Below are positions 10,317 to 50,823 of a DNA stretch of 64,000 nt, piece by piece (position 1 is the stretch's first letter; each line of letters opens with the position of its first letter). This DNA is from an uncultured Alphaproteobacteria bacterium (GTDB lineage: Bacteria; Pseudomonadota; Alphaproteobacteria; RF32; CAG-239): positions 8,279-72,278 of the forward strand of contig CALXUN010000002.1 in the NCBI GenBank assembly GCA_944391705.1, read 5' to 3'. The translations under genes and the position numbers were made by a program. The notes beneath the pieces are model-generated. The model had not been told where the DNA came from. It did not search any database and saw only the letters and a list, made by a program, of their open reading frames with translations.

Positions 10317-10365
10317 TTTCAACCAGAAAAAAAGCCTTTCTCCAATATTGGAGAAAGGCTTTTTT

Positions 10366-10701
10366 TCATTTAACGGCTTTTAGCGCTTTCAGATGATGCT
10401 TATATATCTGCCACTGCTTGCGCTCGGCTTTTTCCTGCAAGAACGAAACACTTTCATCACAACGGCGCCAGAAATTGTCAACGGTATCTTCAAGCCATTC
10501 CTTCAGACATTTTTGATATGCCCCGGGTTTATTCTTAACCATCCGGCAGAAAATATCAACCCTTGGCTGGTCATCATACAAAACGGCCACCGCTTCCGGT
10601 AAAAGTTCGTCAAGCTCTTGCCATAGTTCTTCACCTTTTTTGAGCCTGACTTTCCGTGAAGCCATGCCGCATAAAATTAAAAAATTTTCAGTCTTCTTCA
10701 T
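10366..10701 (-). CDS. Hypothetical helical protein
   Basis: 111-aa ORF ending exactly at the bidirectional terminator. No recognisable motif. Confidence 0.45.
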   Translation of the reverse strand: MKKTENFLILCGMASRKVRLKKGEELWQELDELLPEAVAVLYDDQPRVDIFCRMVKNKPGAYQKCLKEWLEDTVDNFWRRCDESVSFLQEKAERKQWQIYKHHLKALKAVK

Positions 10702-11742: not shown

Positions 11743-11985
11743 GTGCAAAGCTTTACACCAAAAAAAACAAAAGTACCAAGTGTTTTTAAAATATTTTATC
11801 ATCTGTTTTTTAGATGACGCTTTGAAACACTTAATTCACGGAAGCAAACATACTTGAGGAAGAACAGTAACAAACAGTAGGTTGTAACTTATCCCCTACA
11901 AGACTCTTTAAAATTGCAAAAAAAAAAAACAGTTTAGAATGACGGGCAAATCAGTATTTTTTGCAATTTTTCAGGAGTTCTTTGG

Positions 11986-12720
11986 ATGAAACATAATCTT
12001 TTTTCATTCTTATGCAGAGGGCTGCAGATGCGCCGTAACTTTTTAACGACGTGTACGATATCGGGTACACAAGGAAAAAAGTTACAAGCAGATATTGCTC
12101 TATGCGGAAGAAGCATGGTGGAGATGTTGGGGGTACTGGCAATTATTGGTGTGCTTTCGGTCGGCGCTATCTCGGGTTATTCCAAGGCGATGATGAAATA
12201 CAAACTCAACAAACAAGCCGAGCAATTAAGCTGGCTGTTTAACATTATCTATCAATACAAAGGACAGTTCGTTTTTGATAAGAAAACTTCCATGATACCT
12301 TTATTTACCAAATTAAATTTAATTGACCAAAATATGATACGTGCTGATAAAAAAGAAACAATCTACGATTCTTTCGGCAATGCCATCGCTATAGCCAACA
12401 ACAACGGCCCGAAGTTCAATGAAATTGTCTTGAATATGGGTTTACCGAAAAGCAGTTCTAACCGCTTGGCGATTTGTCAAAATGTTTTTAACGTTGCTAA
12501 AGCCCACAGTCCTTACCTGCTTTACATTCGCACCGACAACAGAGAAAGCCAAAGTGAGCCGGTAACCCCTTCCGATATGTATTACGGCGATAGCCTTTGC
12601 CAAAGTCGGGGAAATGGTGTAAATTGTATACGTTACGCAACTCTTGAAAACATTTATAATGTCTGCCAAAATTGTGATGAAATGCCAATTTGTTATTTTT
12701 CTATCACGTGGCGCATATAA
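11986..12720 (+). CDS. Prepilin-like protein (type IV pilin or pseudopilin N-terminal domain), paralog 1
   Basis: Class-III signal: ...ALCG|RSMVEMLGVLAIIGVLSVGAISGY, with Glu at +5 after the conserved Gly and a hydrophobic alpha1 helix. C-terminal Cys cluster (CQNCDEMPICY). Unusually long 40-aa leader. Terminator at 12748-12781. Confidence 0.65.
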   Translation: MKHNLFSFLCRGLQMRRNFLTTCTISGTQGKKLQADIALCGRSMVEMLGVLAIIGVLSVGAISGYSKAMMKYKLNKQAEQLSWLFNIIYQYKGQFVFDKKTSMIPLFTKLNLIDQNMIRADKKETIYDSFGNAIAIANNNGPKFNEIVLNMGLPKSSSNRLAICQNVFNVAKAHSPYLLYIRTDNRESQSEPVTPSDMYYGDSLCQSRGNGVNCIRYATLENIYNVCQNCDEMPICYFSITWRI

Positions 12721-20363: not shown

Positions 20364-20716
20364 AATCGCTTTTCTCCATAATTAAATTTTCCTGCGCCAT
20401 ATAATGACAGCACCTTATAAAATACACAACCTAAATTATAGGACAATCCAATCAACAATTATTTCTAAATTGTCGTAAACACAAACGCCATAACACAGAT
20501 TCCTTAAAAAAATGGTATACAGACACCTGATTAAATCAAAACAAAAATCTTCCTGATTTCCCGGAGCAAGACCTGTTTAAAGAGAGCAAAAAAACGTACC
20601 GGAAGTATGCTCTCCTTTGCGCCAAAAGAATCTTTAAAGTTGCAAAAAAAAAAACGGTTTAGAATGACGCGTAAATCTTATTTGTTTTGTAATTTTTGTA
20701 ACTTTGGAGATTTTTT

Positions 20717-21553
20717 ATGAAACCTTGGTTTTCTTTATTCTTACGCAGAATGTTGCAGATGCGCCGTAACTTTCTGACGACGTGTACAACATTAGGTACA
20801 CGAGGAGAAAAGTTGCAAGCAGATGCGACTTTTTCCGGAAGAAACGAACGACCGCAGAACCGGACAGATGCGAAGCCTTGTTTGAGCGACGTGTACAAAA
20901 TGAGTACACGAGCGAAAAGAAGGCAAACAGATGTTCGGTTATCCGGTCGTTCTATGGTGGAGATGTTGGGAGTTTTAGCAATTATTGGAGTTTTAAGTGT
21001 TGGCGTTATCTCGGGCTATTCCAAAGCCATGATGAAGTATAAACTCAACCGACAAACAGAACAAATCGGTAGTATTCTAGATTATGTTCTGATTAATTCT
21101 GATAAGTTTAATCACGATACTTCCATAGCATTTATTTCATTATTATATAAATTGAATGCCATTCCGGTGGAAATGATAAGGGAAGATTGGATCTACGGCT
21201 ATGCTTATGACATATTCGGCAATAAAGTATATCTGAATGACAATAATGATGGAAATAATATTTATTATAGTTTATCCGTTTCCATCAGTAAATACTCGCG
21301 CGAAATTTGTATGAATTTATACCAAATGGCCAAGCTCCGTTCTGCCAATTTATGGCAAACCGTGTTTAATAAAGACACCCAAAGTTCTTCCATGGAACAC
21401 ACCAACAGAGTATGGGGCGATTCTTATTGCAGCAAATCAGTTACTTGCCTCAAAGATTTAAGCTTAACACAAATGGACGAACTTTGTTCAGCATGTGACG
21501 ATTCTCAAACCTATTGTAGATTTTATATTTTATGGGGTCGGATCAAACCTTAA
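20717..21553 (+). CDS. Prepilin-like protein, paralog 2, with a duplicated leader module
   Basis: Identical mature N-terminus G|RSMVEMLGVLAIIGVLSVGVISGYSKAMMKYKLN. The 77-aa leader contains a tandem duplication of the leader module. Divergent C-terminal domain with a Cys cluster (CSACDDSQTYC). Confidence 0.6.
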   Translation: MKPWFSLFLRRMLQMRRNFLTTCTTLGTRGEKLQADATFSGRNERPQNRTDAKPCLSDVYKMSTRAKRRQTDVRLSGRSMVEMLGVLAIIGVLSVGVISGYSKAMMKYKLNRQTEQIGSILDYVLINSDKFNHDTSIAFISLLYKLNAIPVEMIREDWIYGYAYDIFGNKVYLNDNNDGNNIYYSLSVSISKYSREICMNLYQMAKLRSANLWQTVFNKDTQSSSMEHTNRVWGDSYCSKSVTCLKDLSLTQMDELCSACDDSQTYCRFYILWGRIKP

Positions 21554-21661
21554 AATTAAACATGAATATCACACAAGTCCATTTATAAATTTTGCAAAAT
21601 TGCAACCTCGCTTCTTATCAAGTCATTAAAAAAACAAAGACATTCTTACGTGTTATACCAA

Positions 21662-22125
21662 CCACCATCCGGTCAAGCCGCTTAAAAAGTTCGGATAACG
21701 AGTCAGATACGACGAACCCCTTTTTACATAAGAAGCACAAAGAATTAGACAGTTACGAAGAAAGCTTTCTTGTACCGCCAAACCAACGCCTGATTAAGCC
21801 GCTAAAAAAACAACAACCGCCCAAACACAAAGTCCGCCACCATTCCGTCAAGCCGCTTAAAAAGTTCGGATAACGAGTCAGATACGCCCCCTTTTTACAT
21901 AAGAAGTTCAGAGAATTAAACTGATACGAAGAAAGCTTTCTTGCACCGCCAAACTAACGCCTGATTAAGCCGCTAAAAAAAACAACAACCGCCCGGACAC
22001 AAAGTCCGCCACCATTCCGTCAAGCCGCTTAAAAAGTTCGGATAACGAGTCAGATACGACGAACCCCTTTTTACGCAGTGTACCCAAAATAGTACATAAG
22101 TAAAAAGGGGTTCAAGTAGATGACC
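21662..22125. repeat. Tandem direct repeat of about 175 bp, about 2.4 copies, ending in a hairpin
   Basis: Units begin at 21662, 21837 and 22009 (CCACCATYCCGTCAAGCCGCTTAAAAAGTTCGGATAACGAGTCAGATACG...). The last unit carries a 21-nt insertion containing GTGTAC-N8-GTACAT inside the hairpin AACCCCTTTTTAC...GTAAAAAGGGGTT. Confidence 0.85.
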
Positions 22126-22139
22126 GTTAGACGAACTTT

Positions 22140-23150
22140 TTAGAAGTGGTCGTCACATTTTTTAATCAACTCTTCAATATTTTCCGGCGGCCAACCCGGG
22201 GTTTCCATACCAAGATGAATGCCCATCTTAGCCAGAACTTCTTTGATTTCATTCAAAGACTTGCGGCCAAAGTTCGGTGTGCGAAGCATTTCGGCTTCGG
22301 TCTTCTGAACCAAATCGCCGATATAGACGATGTTATCATTTTTAAGGCAGTTTGCTGAACGAACGGAAAGTTCAAGCTCTTCAACCTTCTTCAAAAGATT
22401 ACGATTGAACGGCAGTTCTTCCTTAACATCTTCAACTTCATTTTCCGGTTCATCAAAGTTAATGAACGGTTTGAGCTGATCTTGCAAAATACGAGCCGCA
22501 TAAGCAACTGCATCTTCCGGAGAAACAACACCGTTGGTTTCAACAGTCAATGTCAGTTTATCGTAATCGGTAATCTGTCCGACACGGGTATTGTCTACTT
22601 TGTAAGAAACTTTTTTAACCGGTGAATAAATTGCATCAACCGCAATCAACCCAATCGGAGCATCTGCCGGTTTGTTCTGATAAGCCGGAACATAACCTTT
22701 ACCGGTATCCACGGTTAATTCCATGGAAATTTTTGCACCGGCATCCAGATTGCAGATAACATGATCCGGATTCATGATTTCGACATCATGACCGGTCTCA
22801 ATCATCGCAGCCGTTACCGTGCACGGACCTTCGGCTTTCAAAGTCATCATTTTCTGACCTTCGCTGTGAACGGCAACAGCCAGCCCTTTAACATTCAGGA
22901 CGATATCCGTCACGTCTTCGCGGACACCCGGAATAACTGAAAATTCATGCAGCACGCCGTCAATTTTGATAGCCGTTACCGCGCCACCCTGTAAAGATGA
23001 AAGCAAAACTCTGCGCAGAGCATTGCCCAAAGTCAGACCAAAACCTCTCTCCAGGGGTTCTACCACTATCTTAGCCTTATTTCCGCCTTCGCCGGAAGTA
23101 ACTTCTAAATTAGTTGGTTTAATAAGTTCTTGCCAATTCTTCTGAATCAC
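22140..23150 (-). CDS. rpoA: DNA-directed RNA polymerase alpha subunit
   Basis: 336 aa. NTD and CTD are typical of RpoA. Lies downstream of rpsK in the alpha operon. Confidence 0.95.
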
Positions 23151-48443: not shown

Positions 48444-48876
48444 GAAAACTCAGCCTATAAAAATCATATAAATATCGCCAGGTAGCCCAGGATTCTGTGC
48501 AGCCACGGACCTACAGTTTGACTTTTGCTCTTAGGGCATGACGAACTGAGAGGCCGTCGCACATGTTGTCACCCCTATGAGGACGCATAGCGTCCGAATA
48601 CCAGGGGTCCACAAAAACTAAAGCAATAACATTTGATTTGTGGATGCCTGATACTCACTCGCTTACGCTTGTTCTTAAGCCATGACAGAAAGGGAGAAGA
48701 GATACTCGTAGCATAAAGCGGTGTTGCAATAGATATCCCCCAGTAAACTGGGGGTTCTATAACAGCTACAAACCTTACGGTTTGACCAAGCTCGTTGGCG
48801 TGGAGCGGTGTTGTTCCAACACCTTGGCATTCAGCCCCGAGTAAACTCGGGGTTTTCTGTAAGGCAACTAAATAAA

Positions 48877-48915
48877 CCAACCCCCGCATTGGGATGCGGG
48901 GGTTGGTTTGATTTA
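48877..48915. terminator. Strong bidirectional terminator
   Basis: AACCAACCCCCGCATTGGGATGCGGGGGTTGGTTT. Confidence 0.8.
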
Positions 48916-50823
48916 TTGTTTTTTAGTTGGTGCTTTGGTTACGTAGTTGTGATTACTGTTATAATCATAACATAGCTCAAAGCATCCATCTGTAACCATA
49001 ACATATGGAACAGAATTGGGATTTGGATTTTTCTTACCGGGTGTCCAGTGGTTATCCTCAGGCTTGGTGAAACATTCATATTCAGCGGTATGGTATTGTC
49101 CATCCGGGCACAATTGACATTTGTAACAAGTGTCATTACCTGCATATCCAACTGTACTTTCATAACCATAATATGGTGAATTATAGCATTCCGAACGGTT
49201 TGTCGTAATACCAGGTCCGGTCGGACAGGTTTTGGCTTTACATTTGTAACAACTTACATCACCTGAGCCGTTTTCATTAGCTTCAATAATGCTTGTATCC
49301 AATTCCCATCCGCCACTTTGGCCGCATTCTGAAACATCTTTAACAAAGCCGTCTATGCAAATACATTTATAACACTGTCTATCACCCCGATAAGAATCAC
49401 CCAATGTTGAACTCATATTCACGCCACAGAACCTTAGCACTGAATTCATACCAAATTCGTCTGTTGCGCATGACTTAGTTTCACATTGATAACACCCTGC
49501 CTCATCGGTATCCGTACCAAGCTTCCAGCCCTTTGTTCCGGTTTTCCCGCAATCAGCTGCCGTTTTTGCATAACCATCCGTACATTGAAGCGTTACGCAT
49601 TTATAACAACCCTTAACTGTAGCGTGTTCTTGAAGCGTTTGTCCGACAAAACAGGCTTGGAGCCGATTTGCAGAATAACCGGCAGGACAATCTTTAACAC
49701 ATCGATAACATCCTGTATCGCCGGCATAAGCCGTCGAATGATATTCCGCCTTATAATCACTACGGCAAATACCTAAATCTCCGGCAGTATATCCTGTAGG
49801 ACAGGATTTGGCTGCACAAGCACCGCAAACAATTACTTTATTGCCGCTGACAACCTTTTTAGTGTATATATTCCATCCGGCGCTCCCTGAATCACCGCAA
49901 TCTTCAACTTTTTGATACTTGGAAGAAGAACCAGCCGGACACACATCATCGTCGGTTTCTTCTTGACCTGGACAATACATATAACTTGAATCAAACGGGC
50001 ATTTAACCCCGGTTGTTCCGTCATCACATTTTGTTGCCTTGACATAACCAAGGGTTGCACAATCCGTAACCGTTGTTTGCGTCACATTGCACCAATATGC
50101 TTCCAGATTAATCTGTCCTTCTTCGCTGCAGGTTTCTGCACTGCAAAGATAGCAATTATCATGACCGTTATAAACCTGTTCGACCAGCGTTGTACAACCA
50201 TCTGTCCGGGAGCTGCATTCTTCGGTCGAATAGCTGTCATCGCAAATACAATAAGGATACCAGCGGCTGCCGTCCGGTTCCTCGCAATAATCCGTACCGC
50301 TTGGTTCTTTTAAACCTCTCTCATCGCAGCTATACGGATAAACAGTTCGGGAACAAGCACATTCCTCATATCTGATAGATCCATCAGCAGGGCTCCTACA
50401 GGAATCTCCGCTGCCGGATGCATTAGTATAGTCAGCACAACTTTCATACGGATAACGAGCCGGATTGCAAATGGTTTCAGAACCGGCACAGCCGCACACC
50501 GAATTAAAAGTTCCGGTACAAATATATTTACCATTTTCCAAATCCAAAACATTATCGCTGTTACAGCTGCAACGATAATATGTTTTGTCATTATAAATAC
50601 AAGTTTGCTCCTGATAACCTTCCGGACATGGCGTTGTCCGATCATATCCCTGACATCCCGTACCAAGCCAGCTGCTGTTGTCAATACAACCGTCACCATT
50701 TAAAACGCCGGGCAAAAAGCAGACTTTGGCTTCTGCATCTGCTGCCGCGATTAGTATAACCAACAGTAAAAATTTCGCCAATGTCCGCATACTCTTAAGC
50801 CCTTCAGATAACTTGCCGTTCAT
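48913..50823 (-). CDS. Secreted, extremely Cys-rich repeat protein, 636 aa
   Basis: Signal peptide MRTLAKFLLLVILIAAADAEA. About 7 tandem modules of 35-45 aa of the form C-[PT]-x-G-[YF]...G..GCY[KRQ]C... (GCYRCVKDCPAGY, GCYKCVTLQCTDGY, GCYQCETKSCATDEF, QCYKCICIDGF, SCYKCKAKTCPTGPG, TCYKCQLCPDGQY). Own promoter and an AGGAAAG RBS. Confidence 0.7.
   Translation of the reverse strand: MNGKLSEGLKSMRTLAKFLLLVILIAAADAEAKVCFLPGVLNGDGCIDNSSWLGTGCQGYDRTTPCPEGYQEQTCIYNDKTYYRCSCNSDNVLDLENGKYICTGTFNSVCGCAGSETICNPARYPYESCADYTNASGSGDSCRSPADGSIRYEECACSRTVYPYSCDERGLKEPSGTDYCEEPDGSRWYPYCICDDSYSTEECSSRTDGCTTLVEQVYNGHDNCYLCSAETCSEEGQINLEAYWCNVTQTTVTDCATLGYVKATKCDDGTTGVKCPFDSSYMYCPGQEETDDDVCPAGSSSKYQKVEDCGDSGSAGWNIYTKKVVSGNKVIVCGACAAKSCPTGYTAGDLGICRSDYKAEYHSTAYAGDTGCYRCVKDCPAGYSANRLQACFVGQTLQEHATVKGCYKCVTLQCTDGYAKTAADCGKTGTKGWKLGTDTDEAGCYQCETKSCATDEFGMNSVLRFCGVNMSSTLGDSYRGDRQCYKCICIDGFVKDVSECGQSGGWELDTSIIEANENGSGDVSCYKCKAKTCPTGPGITTNRSECYNSPYYGYESTVGYAGNDTCYKCQLCPDGQYHTAEYECFTKPEDNHWTPGKKNPNPNSVPYVMVTDGCFELCYDYNSNHNYVTKAPTKKQ

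Follow-up and report, generated by a model that had tools for sequence, protein, structure and literature searches.

The Rickettsia palindromic elements (RPEs) are repeats of 105-146 bp that form a long stem-loop and that lie either between genes or fused in frame into genes, in which case they are translated (PMC2229807, PMC10969869). Similarly, the Correia/NEMIS, ERIC and RUP repeats are about 100-200 bp long, pair their 5' and 3' ends into a long stem-loop, often have TA termini and are co-transcribed with their neighbours; the 107-bp form of Correia has also been found fused inside genes (PMC2229807). In addition, the SPRITE repeat resembles a Rho-independent terminator (PMC10969869). Here, we analyse a palindromic element in a stretch of 64,000 nucleotides (nt), hereafter the window, from an uncultured alphaproteobacterium of the RF32 lineage, CAG-239 (assembly GCA_944391705.1, contig CALXUN010000002.1, positions 8,279 to 72,278 of the forward strand). 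A first-pass annotation of this DNA had picked out a recurrent palindrome, GTGTAC-N7/8-GTACAC, in the leader regions of two pilin-like genes. We find that this 20-nt palindrome caps a much longer hairpin (about 106 nt) and is not a self-contained site, and that the same apex tops otherwise unrelated hairpins in diverse metagenomic bacteria; the element is not pilin-specific. With a probability that we put at roughly 0.55, the motif is the apex of a palindromic repeat of about 102-112 nt, comparable to an RPE or to a miniature inverted-repeat transposable element (MITE), that is tolerated or exploited in a cleavable pilin leader. A selfish-DNA-like sequence inside a coding region, rather than a pilin-specific control site, is therefore our best reading.

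How does this element compare with the described families? Like the RPEs, it has alphaproteobacterial hosts, measures 102-112 nt and is found both as in-frame, stop-free inserts and as intergenic copies. In contrast to the RPEs, which occupy many unrelated genes at surface-exposed positions, its insertions are confined to one gene family and to one position, in a segment predicted to be removed. NCBIfam, which includes RPE domain models, gave no match at E<=1 with the full proteins, nor at E<=10 with the module peptides taken from all open frames of both strands. The small size and the single long, covarying stem-loop (median 106-107 nt) are those of a MITE. While Correia, ERIC and RUP have conserved terminal inverted repeats and a documented TA duplication, here the apex is conserved and the ends vary. 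The element also resembles the REP/REPIN sequences, hairpin-forming extragenic palindromes of about 100 nt that are located after genes, reach high copy numbers in a genome and are mobilised by RAYT transposases. A single-copy enzyme of the REP system recognises a conserved structural motif; among the flanking genes examined, no RAYT-like gene was found near any copy of our element.

In the window, an exact search places the motif at 12051-12070, 20782-20801 and 20891-20909, always on the + strand, compared with no match in 100 dinucleotide-preserving shuffles. Relaxing the pattern to TGTAC-N6-9-GTACA adds a match at 22079-22096, giving four against 0.05 expected. As first annotated, all three exact copies lie within the leaders of two pilin-like genes (gene 1, 11986-12720; gene 2, 20717-21553), with a spacer of 8 nt in gene 1 and in the first copy of gene 2, and of 7 nt in its second copy. 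Between the two gene 2 copies, the reading frame of the palindrome's left half differs (TTCT versus SDVY), and the translations originally given for them, TTCTTLGTR and SDVYKMSTR, are correct; 3' of the loop, the reading frames agree again (GTR and STR). The proposal that these two copies belong to a duplicated segment of about 50 nt did not survive. Instead, they are the tips of two modules, each complete and about 107 nt long, that belong to separate subfamilies, A (20738-20843) and B (20846-20953), and whose outer stems are unlike in sequence yet complementary within each copy. The fourth occurrence, at 22078-22097 and outside any pilin gene, is a full member of the element family. The condition under which the first-pass annotation would have been refuted, a chance frequency without positional bias, did not hold: of 25 relaxed matches in the 718 kb that surround family members, 21 lie at most 500 nt upstream of a pilin N-terminus, mostly 50-100 nt away.

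The extent of the hairpin becomes apparent from folding and from covariation. Folding of the leader regions revealed complementarity well past the 6+6 core, with folding z-scores of -2.9 and -5.4. We lined up the copies from the window and from 80 related loci in metagenome-assembled genomes (MAGs; loci L001-L080). Conserved across them are the apex, which comprises a 7-bp stem, an A-rich loop and a purine-rich internal loop (GAGCGA / GAGCGAG), together with a left flank CAGAT(G/A)CG and a right flank CAAG(C/T)AGATG. At least seven different middle stems occur, each matching its own partner, for example GCCTT/AAGGC, GTAACTTTTT/AAAAAGTTAC and GGGATTTT/AAAATCCC, as well as GAACCCCTTTTTAC/GTAAAAAGGGGTTC and GCAAGCCCTGTCAC/GTGACAGGGCTTGC. 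When 21 copies were aligned, RNAalifold found compensatory changes in 10 of 21 pairs, and the G/A of the left flank covaries with the C/T of the right flank, the pair being GC in 11 copies and AU in 8. A covariance model built from these 21 copies gave 37 strong matches in 718 kb from about a dozen MAGs, all on the pilin-gene strand, and 80 matches in 585 kb of metagenome loci. Among the 71 distinct copies of the metagenome set, 93.1% of cells are paired, compared with 75.1% in shuffles; double changes are seen in 16 of the 21 pairs (262 cells), and slid partner columns pair in only 29-56%. Full hairpins mostly measure 102-112 nt (median 106 nt outside leaders, n=55, and 107 nt within them, n=22), and the complementarity, covarying and without sequence conservation, reaches about 45 nt on each side of the core. 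A generic inverted-repeat finder did not report these elements because internal loops interrupt their ungapped arms.

The first-pass annotation had argued that the nucleic acid, and not the peptide, is what is conserved. This stands: the 25 unique leader modules show the core in two reading frames on either side of the loop, which argues that the peptide is not the conserved thing, the stems covary strongly, and the core is also present in non-coding DNA. Only some of the functions suggested with that argument hold up. The site for a dimeric regulator does not, since the same tip sits on unrelated hairpins without a pilin gene, while the RNA hairpin and the recombination site are still candidates and are weighed below.

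Both genes of the window contain G-RSMVEMLGVLAIIGVLS, a class III (prepilin-type) signal with predicted cleavage after the G. Sequence models match genes 1 and 2 below their cut-offs only, aligning exactly at this cleavage site. The host gene has the G at -1, the E at +5, the hydrophobic N-terminal helix and the pilin fold expected of a type IV pilin with a class III signal peptide, and in an alignment of 25 homologues the G(-1), the E(+5) and the hydrophobic helix are invariant. The family is large, with more than 7,700 proteins of 200 to 358 amino acids at E<=0.001, and the reference genomes that carry it are MAGs of uncultured gut Alphaproteobacteria, with many paralogues per MAG and many of these at contig ends. 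A large share of the MAG contigs start or stop inside the promoter-like box, the leader or the modules (L001, L002, L010, L013, L015, L018, L020-L023, L026, L033, L034, L046, L050, L076 and others). The conserved 5' regions are thus systematic assembly breakpoints, and the paralogue counts per genome are probably underestimated.

All members with enough upstream sequence share one layout: a promoter-like box, a Shine-Dalgarno sequence, an ATG, the leader and G-RSMVEML. The box has the consensus TTGC, A8-15, a short spacer and TA(G/A)AAT, with the Shine-Dalgarno sequence and the ATG 57-77 nt from its start, and it presumably acts as the promoter of these genes. A scan with promoter and terminator consensus sequences found these no more often than in shuffles, and it missed the conserved box. 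The A tract between TTGC and TA(G/A)AAT (11918-11929 and 20644-20654 in the window; L003-L079) varies in length among paralogues, with 8-13 counted and up to 15 seen, the mode being 10 in one clade and 12 in the other. If the box is a promoter, a variable homopolymer in its spacer is the classical set-up for phase variation. In one MAG clade, a different, GC-rich repeat (for example CCACCCCGCCTTCGGCACCCCTCCATAGAGGGGAATTTTAAA, with GGGGTGGCGGCGGAACGCCGACAGGGTG as its other arm) lies 100-250 nt upstream of the box in many family members (L014, L023, L025, L061, L068 and L077).

The leaders themselves fall into two classes. Among the 78 genes analysed, 39 have short leaders of 5-7 amino acids (MRENG, MYTQSG, MKSENG, MKFNEFG) and 39 have long ones of 40-100 amino acids, and a long leader consists of a short leader plus 1 to 4 palindromic modules. 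Every one of the 39 long leaders is in frame and stop-free from the conserved ATG, and the distance from box to ATG is as in the 39 short-leader genes; two seeming short-leader exceptions were traced to a wrongly chosen ATG. Single-module inserts measure exactly 36 codons (108 nt), as in MKFNELGRS-[36 amino acids]-MVEML of L072 and L007 and in MRENDRS-[36 amino acids]-MVEML of the homologue P0015. Because the leader copies are in frame, free of stops and re-create the G-R-S of the cleavage site, we infer that the modules are translated as extra leader sequence. In related MAGs, two further module families are found at this in-frame position of the leader. Type C is built on the core GCGTAC-N7-GTACGTG, with the peptide ...SSVHKTYVNF... 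(L001:130-250, L008, L056, L063). Type D units measure about 100 nt and contain three hairpins, in which the loops CTTGA and TCAAG flank CCAGGT...ACCTGG (L009, L012, L015, L016, L019, L022 and others).

In the window, gene 1 (11986-12720, +) encodes a type IVb-pilin-like protein with a leader of 41 amino acids (11986-12108), predicted to be cleaved at G-RSMVEML, and it is preceded by a promoter-like box at 11914-11940 (+; TTGC, A12, CAGTT, TAGAAT). Its leader carries one module of subfamily A (12007-12112, +; core 12051-12070), matched by the covariance model at 12023-12100 with 78.8 bits. This module folds with an extended stem GTAACTTTTT.../...AAAAAGTTAC, and outer pairing between TTCTTATGCAGAG and CTCTATGCGGAAGAA can be read from its sequence. 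Gene 2 (20717-21553, +), also type IVb-pilin-like, follows a box at 20640-20665 (+; TTGC, A11, CGGTT, TAGAAT) and has a leader of 77 amino acids (20717-20947). The first of its two modules, a subfamily A hairpin of 106 nt (20738-20843, +; core 20782-20801), gives a covariance-model match at 20754-20831 with 88.6 bits. The A copies of genes 1 and 2 are 78% identical and both fold, a stem pair that differs between them (T-A to C-G) being compensated; the mature regions of the two genes share 73% identity only.

The second module of gene 2, from subfamily B (20846-20953, +; core 20891-20909), is matched at 20863-20939 with 79.9 bits and forms a hairpin of 107 nt with the ends GAACGACCG...CGGTCGTTC. 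It amounts to exactly 108 nt (36 codons) inserted between the old GR(N) codon triplet and MVEML. By this same length the leader of gene 2 exceeds that of gene 1, and the same 36-amino-acid insert is present in P0015. The right end of module B, GGTCGTTCT, codes for the working G-R-S and pairs with GAACGACC at the left end. The two ends of module B read E-R-P at the start and G-R-S at the end in both orientations, which suggests either that the host gene's cleavage-site codons were the source of its terminal arms or that these arms were selected for a match to them. The loop of this copy (AAAATGA) contains an ATG, and we considered whether it could be a sequestered start codon. We rejected this idea: other loops of the same subfamily (AAAAGCG, AAAAACG) have no ATG, and the upstream Shine-Dalgarno sequence and ATG are always in frame.

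Downstream of gene 2, at 21629-22029 (+), there is a tandem array of partial element copies with a period of about 172 nt, each with the left arm and the tail and without the apex (repeat families D1 and D4). About 2.5 such units are followed by one complete element, at 22030-22142 (+; core 22078-22097), which the covariance model matches at 22049-22128 with 74.2 bits. This is the copy that lies outside any pilin gene. Its termini are TAAAAAGTTCGG...CCGAACTTTTTA, the right side being read as CGAACTTTTTA, and it closes with TTA, which is the minus-strand stop codon TAA of rpoA (open reading frame 22140-23150, minus strand, ending in CDDHF and the stop).

Is this position against a stop codon a general property of the element? 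An exact scan of metagenome contigs for GACGTGTAC-N7/8-GTACACGAG returned at least 120 loci, with 124 matches listed. Among the matches listed, the core precedes a pilin N-terminus in 16 of 124. The others listed are mostly hairpins of about 105 nt, with arms that are unrelated in sequence and at loci that range from 32% to 63% GC; some, whose arms do not reach beyond the core, appear to be partial copies or to match by chance. We define opposite and same strand relative to the strand that reads GAC...GAG across the core. Among the matches listed, 35 of the non-leader copies with extended arms adjoin only the stop codon of an opposite-strand gene, 5 adjoin a same-strand gene only, 5 have genes on both sides and 27 have neither. 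The neighbours are ordinary housekeeping genes (groEL, recR, valS-like, ABC-F), and the window copy next to rpoA obeys the stop-codon rule exactly. It could be thought that the element is an ancient resident retained at the same housekeeping genes. This was rejected, as positions are shared only in close relatives (at least 90% amino-acid identity), for example after recR.

The AT-rich members of the family have termini of their own. They end TAAAAA.../...TTTTTA, with TA at both termini, which the GC-rich members do not, and several show clear TA-AAAAG...CTTTT-TA ends. Of 55 non-leader copies overall, 12 have a TA no more than 2 nt from each hairpin end, and 24 have one at a single end. With A4-5 before the stem and T4-5 after it, right behind stop codons, these AT-rich members look like a bidirectional intrinsic terminator. 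A U tract after the stem is present in the 3' copy of the window (CGAACTTTTTA) and in about 20 AT-rich non-leader copies, and in none of the GC-rich or leader copies. The leader copies cannot be terminators, because the gene continues through them. Two other palindromes of the window, a perfect overlapping one of 25 nt at 10326-10367 (GAAAAAAAGCCTTTCTCCAATATTG...) and a 25-nt inverted repeat at 48865-48918 with 84% complementarity and a 4-nt loop, are probably ordinary terminators unrelated to the hairpin element.

The modules turn over between orthologous loci. Gene 1 of the window carries A, and L001, whose mature protein is 94% identical, carries C and B; similarly, gene 2 carries A and B where L063 carries C and A. 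The 3' elements of the window and of the orthologous L063 occupy the same place between near-identical flanks, with entirely different, self-complementary stems. L002, L040 and L056 retain scars in which the right flank is kept and the hairpin is gone. Left-arm arrays ahead of one full copy are also found at unrelated metagenome loci (L165, L171, L023, L107, L192), and the last L023 copy is chimeric, with arms from two subfamilies.

We propose the following scenario for the repeat-like origin of the modules. The palindrome is the conserved apical stem-loop of an element that folds, as RNA or as single-stranded DNA, into one rod-like hairpin. Many uncultured bacteria carry such elements, typically right against the stop codons of genes, and in this lineage of gut Alphaproteobacteria copies may have entered the leader segment of a much expanded type IVb-pilin-like family. 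There, the copies are placed exactly between the G-R-S cleavage codons and the mature N-terminus, with no stop and in a multiple of 3 bases, and re-create G-R-S at their right end; the module-extended leader would presumably be removed by prepilin peptidase. Because it is discarded, the leader would be a permissive place for an insert. The near-identical promoter and 5' untranslated region, together with the conserved mature N-terminus, would enable paralogues to recombine, by which modules could be spread and combined anew. Behaviour of a repeat is seen in at least eight contigs of equal coverage from one assembly that carry one subfamily, in the partial arrays, in the chimeric copy and in the TA termini of the AT-rich members; in addition, copies are dispersed and many per genome, with 4 in the 64-kb window and 37 in the 718 kb.

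Several observations weigh against a mobile, merely tolerated repeat. Neither a transposase, nor a target-site duplication, nor an empty site was found in the 64-kb window or in the flanks of up to 14 kb at the other loci, and, the pilin family itself apart, no gene family is found repeatedly around the elements. The conserved apex with variable arms and ends is the reverse of a classical MITE with conserved ends. The hairpin is intact although the two A copies of the window are only 78% identical, which fits structural selection at least as well as neutral tolerance. All 37 model matches are oriented like the pilin gene, though the reverse orientation has open frames, and about 24 of the 37 lie in leaders, far above chance for a target of about 20 nt per gene. 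Furthermore, at the 80 loci, leaders hold 57 of the 59 type D modules and all 4 of the type C modules, which hints that hairpins may be wanted there and not merely tolerated. We also considered whether stop codons force the orientation of the leader copies, and rejected this, as all 25 unique leader modules have at least one open reverse frame.

A rival explanation is that the modules are retained in leaders for an action in the mRNA, where a stem of at least 100 nt would slow ribosomes or be cut by a double-strand-specific enzyme such as RNase III, thereby setting or silencing the expression of individual paralogues. We regard this explanation as possible but rather unlikely. In its favour, compensatory changes keep the structure across diverged copies, the two A copies of the window included, the leader copies share the gene's orientation without being forced to by stop codons, and three unrelated hairpin families are found at the same leader position. 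RNase III cleavage of co-transcribed Correia hairpins is documented (PMC10969869). It also fits that G-U-compatible mismatches are modestly in excess on the sense strand: 63 versus 41 in leader copies, 64 versus 40 in copies next to minus-strand genes and 11 versus 3 next to plus-strand genes, with no bias in copies without an adjacent gene (50 versus 55). However, this asymmetry in wobble pairs is weak and could have arisen through transcription-coupled C-to-T mutation. Moreover, about half of the paralogues have no module, and the module sets differ between orthologues, so that no module is tied to a particular gene. The elements at the 3' ends of genes are mostly opposite in orientation to the adjacent gene; thus, one sense-strand RNA function cannot cover all copies. 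Finally, the modules have no match to any Rfam family.

It is also tempting to speculate that the element is a recombination site in DNA, or a hairpin or cruciform prone to recombination, that, from the 5' end and sometimes the 3' flank of pilin genes, promotes the exchange of leaders or of whole cassettes between loci and so generates pilin variation, although on balance we find this unlikely. The inverted arms of 7 bp around an asymmetric spacer of 7-8 bp have the layout of a recombinase core site, with a conserved apex and variable arms. The chimeric L023 copy, the left-arm arrays and the wholesale replacement of modules at orthologous loci all point in the same direction, as do the many MAG contigs that break within leaders; however, contig breaks are expected from any repeat. 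Elements lie just 3' of pilin genes at about 5 independent loci, versus none elsewhere in about 600 kb of flanks. Yet these 3' copies also follow the stop-codon rule for convergent genes, and any association with pilin genes may thus be an indirect one. The window contains no recombinase gene, nor is one found repeatedly in the neighbourhood of the elements, and the junctions of the partial copies fall at no single fixed position of the apex.

Two further known systems can be compared with the element. The attC sites of integrons are imperfect palindromes of about 60-140 nt, conserved in structure and not in sequence, and they sit in fixed orientation after stop codons. In contrast to the attC core sites RYYYAAC / GTTRRRY, the tails seen here are GTTAGA, ATTAGA, GCTAGA or ATTATA, with the GTT not conserved, and it is the apex of the hairpin, not its base, that is conserved. 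Neither an integrase nor a cassette array was found in the window. In Neisseria, pilE has an upstream G-quadruplex (G4) structure, and a Sma/Cla repeat lies 3' in this multi-copy pilin family. The likeness, by analogy only, is that a non-B-DNA element lies 5' and a conserved repeat 3' of members of a multi-copy pilin family. Here, however, the structure is a hairpin and not a G-quadruplex, every copy has a promoter-like box of its own, and the mature regions gave no sign of gene conversion, genes 1 and 2 being only 73% identical there.

A related proposal, and one we likewise hold as doubtful, is that the hairpin of about 106 nt with its invariant apex is recognised by a conserved protein, on folded DNA or RNA, across very different bacteria, and that in these Alphaproteobacteria it was recruited to the 5' end, and at times the 3' flank, of dozens of type IVb-pilin-like genes for exchange of leader modules or whole cassettes or for switching single paralogues on and off. 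If this were true, the system would parallel pilin antigenic or phase variation, with a hairpin as its basis.

By far the least probable explanation, an operator at which a dimeric transcription factor would regulate the pilin genes, can call on the perfect 6+6 inverted repeat 3' of the conserved promoter-like box in both pilin genes, but it conflicts with a location 100-240 nt downstream of that box, within translated sequence, or at gene 3' ends, with a spacer of 7 or 8 nt that is not fixed, with covarying complementarity of about 45 nt per side, far beyond half-sites, with the absence of the palindrome from half of the family, and with the same core at the 3' ends of unrelated genes (rpoA, groEL, recR and others) in unrelated genomes, where the same tip on unrelated hairpins of pilin-free contigs of 32-63% GC argues against an operator of pilin genes.

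Over the whole window, Rfam gave no match at its gathering thresholds, and at E<=10 over 20650-22150 it gave two weak eukaryotic matches (a miRNA precursor and a snoRNA), which we take as chance. BLAST of three element variants against 72,556 plasmids returned short chance matches only. An exact scan of the IMG/VR viral contigs for the core found no match, which indicates that the element is not phage-borne. In the literature, full-text searches with the core sequence returned primer-like chance matches only, and searches on a pilin leader with a palindromic element, and on RF32 with pilin, found nothing on this system.

The strand on which the pilin-like genes lie deserves a separate comment. 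Long open reading frames in the window number 35 on the minus versus 12 on the plus strand, and the bulk GC skew is negative in every 8-kb window. The pilin-like genes are on the minority strand; at the MAG loci, 262 non-pilin genes are on the opposite strand versus 152 on the pilin strand. GC skew at third codon positions (GC3 skew) is negative for genes on both strands, in the window and at 58 of 73 MAG loci, and the strand reading GAC...GAG across the core tends to be lagging by this measure (32 of 48 and 58 of 73 loci). The pilin-like family seems to lie preferentially on the lagging strand. The orientation of the elements is correlated both with the direction of most local genes and with GC3 skew, while its link to the adjacent gene is stronger (35 versus 5).

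In-frame palindromic repeats in genes are best known from Rickettsia, and the system described here would be a second, independent case, confined to a peptide that is predicted to be discarded. Known type IV pilin leaders have about 5-30 amino acids, and those predicted here reach about 100. For annotation, this means that the unexplained N-terminal extensions of 40-130 amino acids that gene callers give these proteins are such leaders, at which the assemblies also break. Beyond the pilin genes, the element represents an uncatalogued family of hairpins of constant length, with a conserved apex and no Rfam match, found in diverse metagenomic bacteria right at the stop codons of their housekeeping genes. 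Finally, about half of the more than 7,700 homologues may carry modules, and since members with 0-4 of them stand behind an otherwise identical promoter-like box and start codon, the family would offer a natural experiment in which tolerated junk can be told from regulatory parts.

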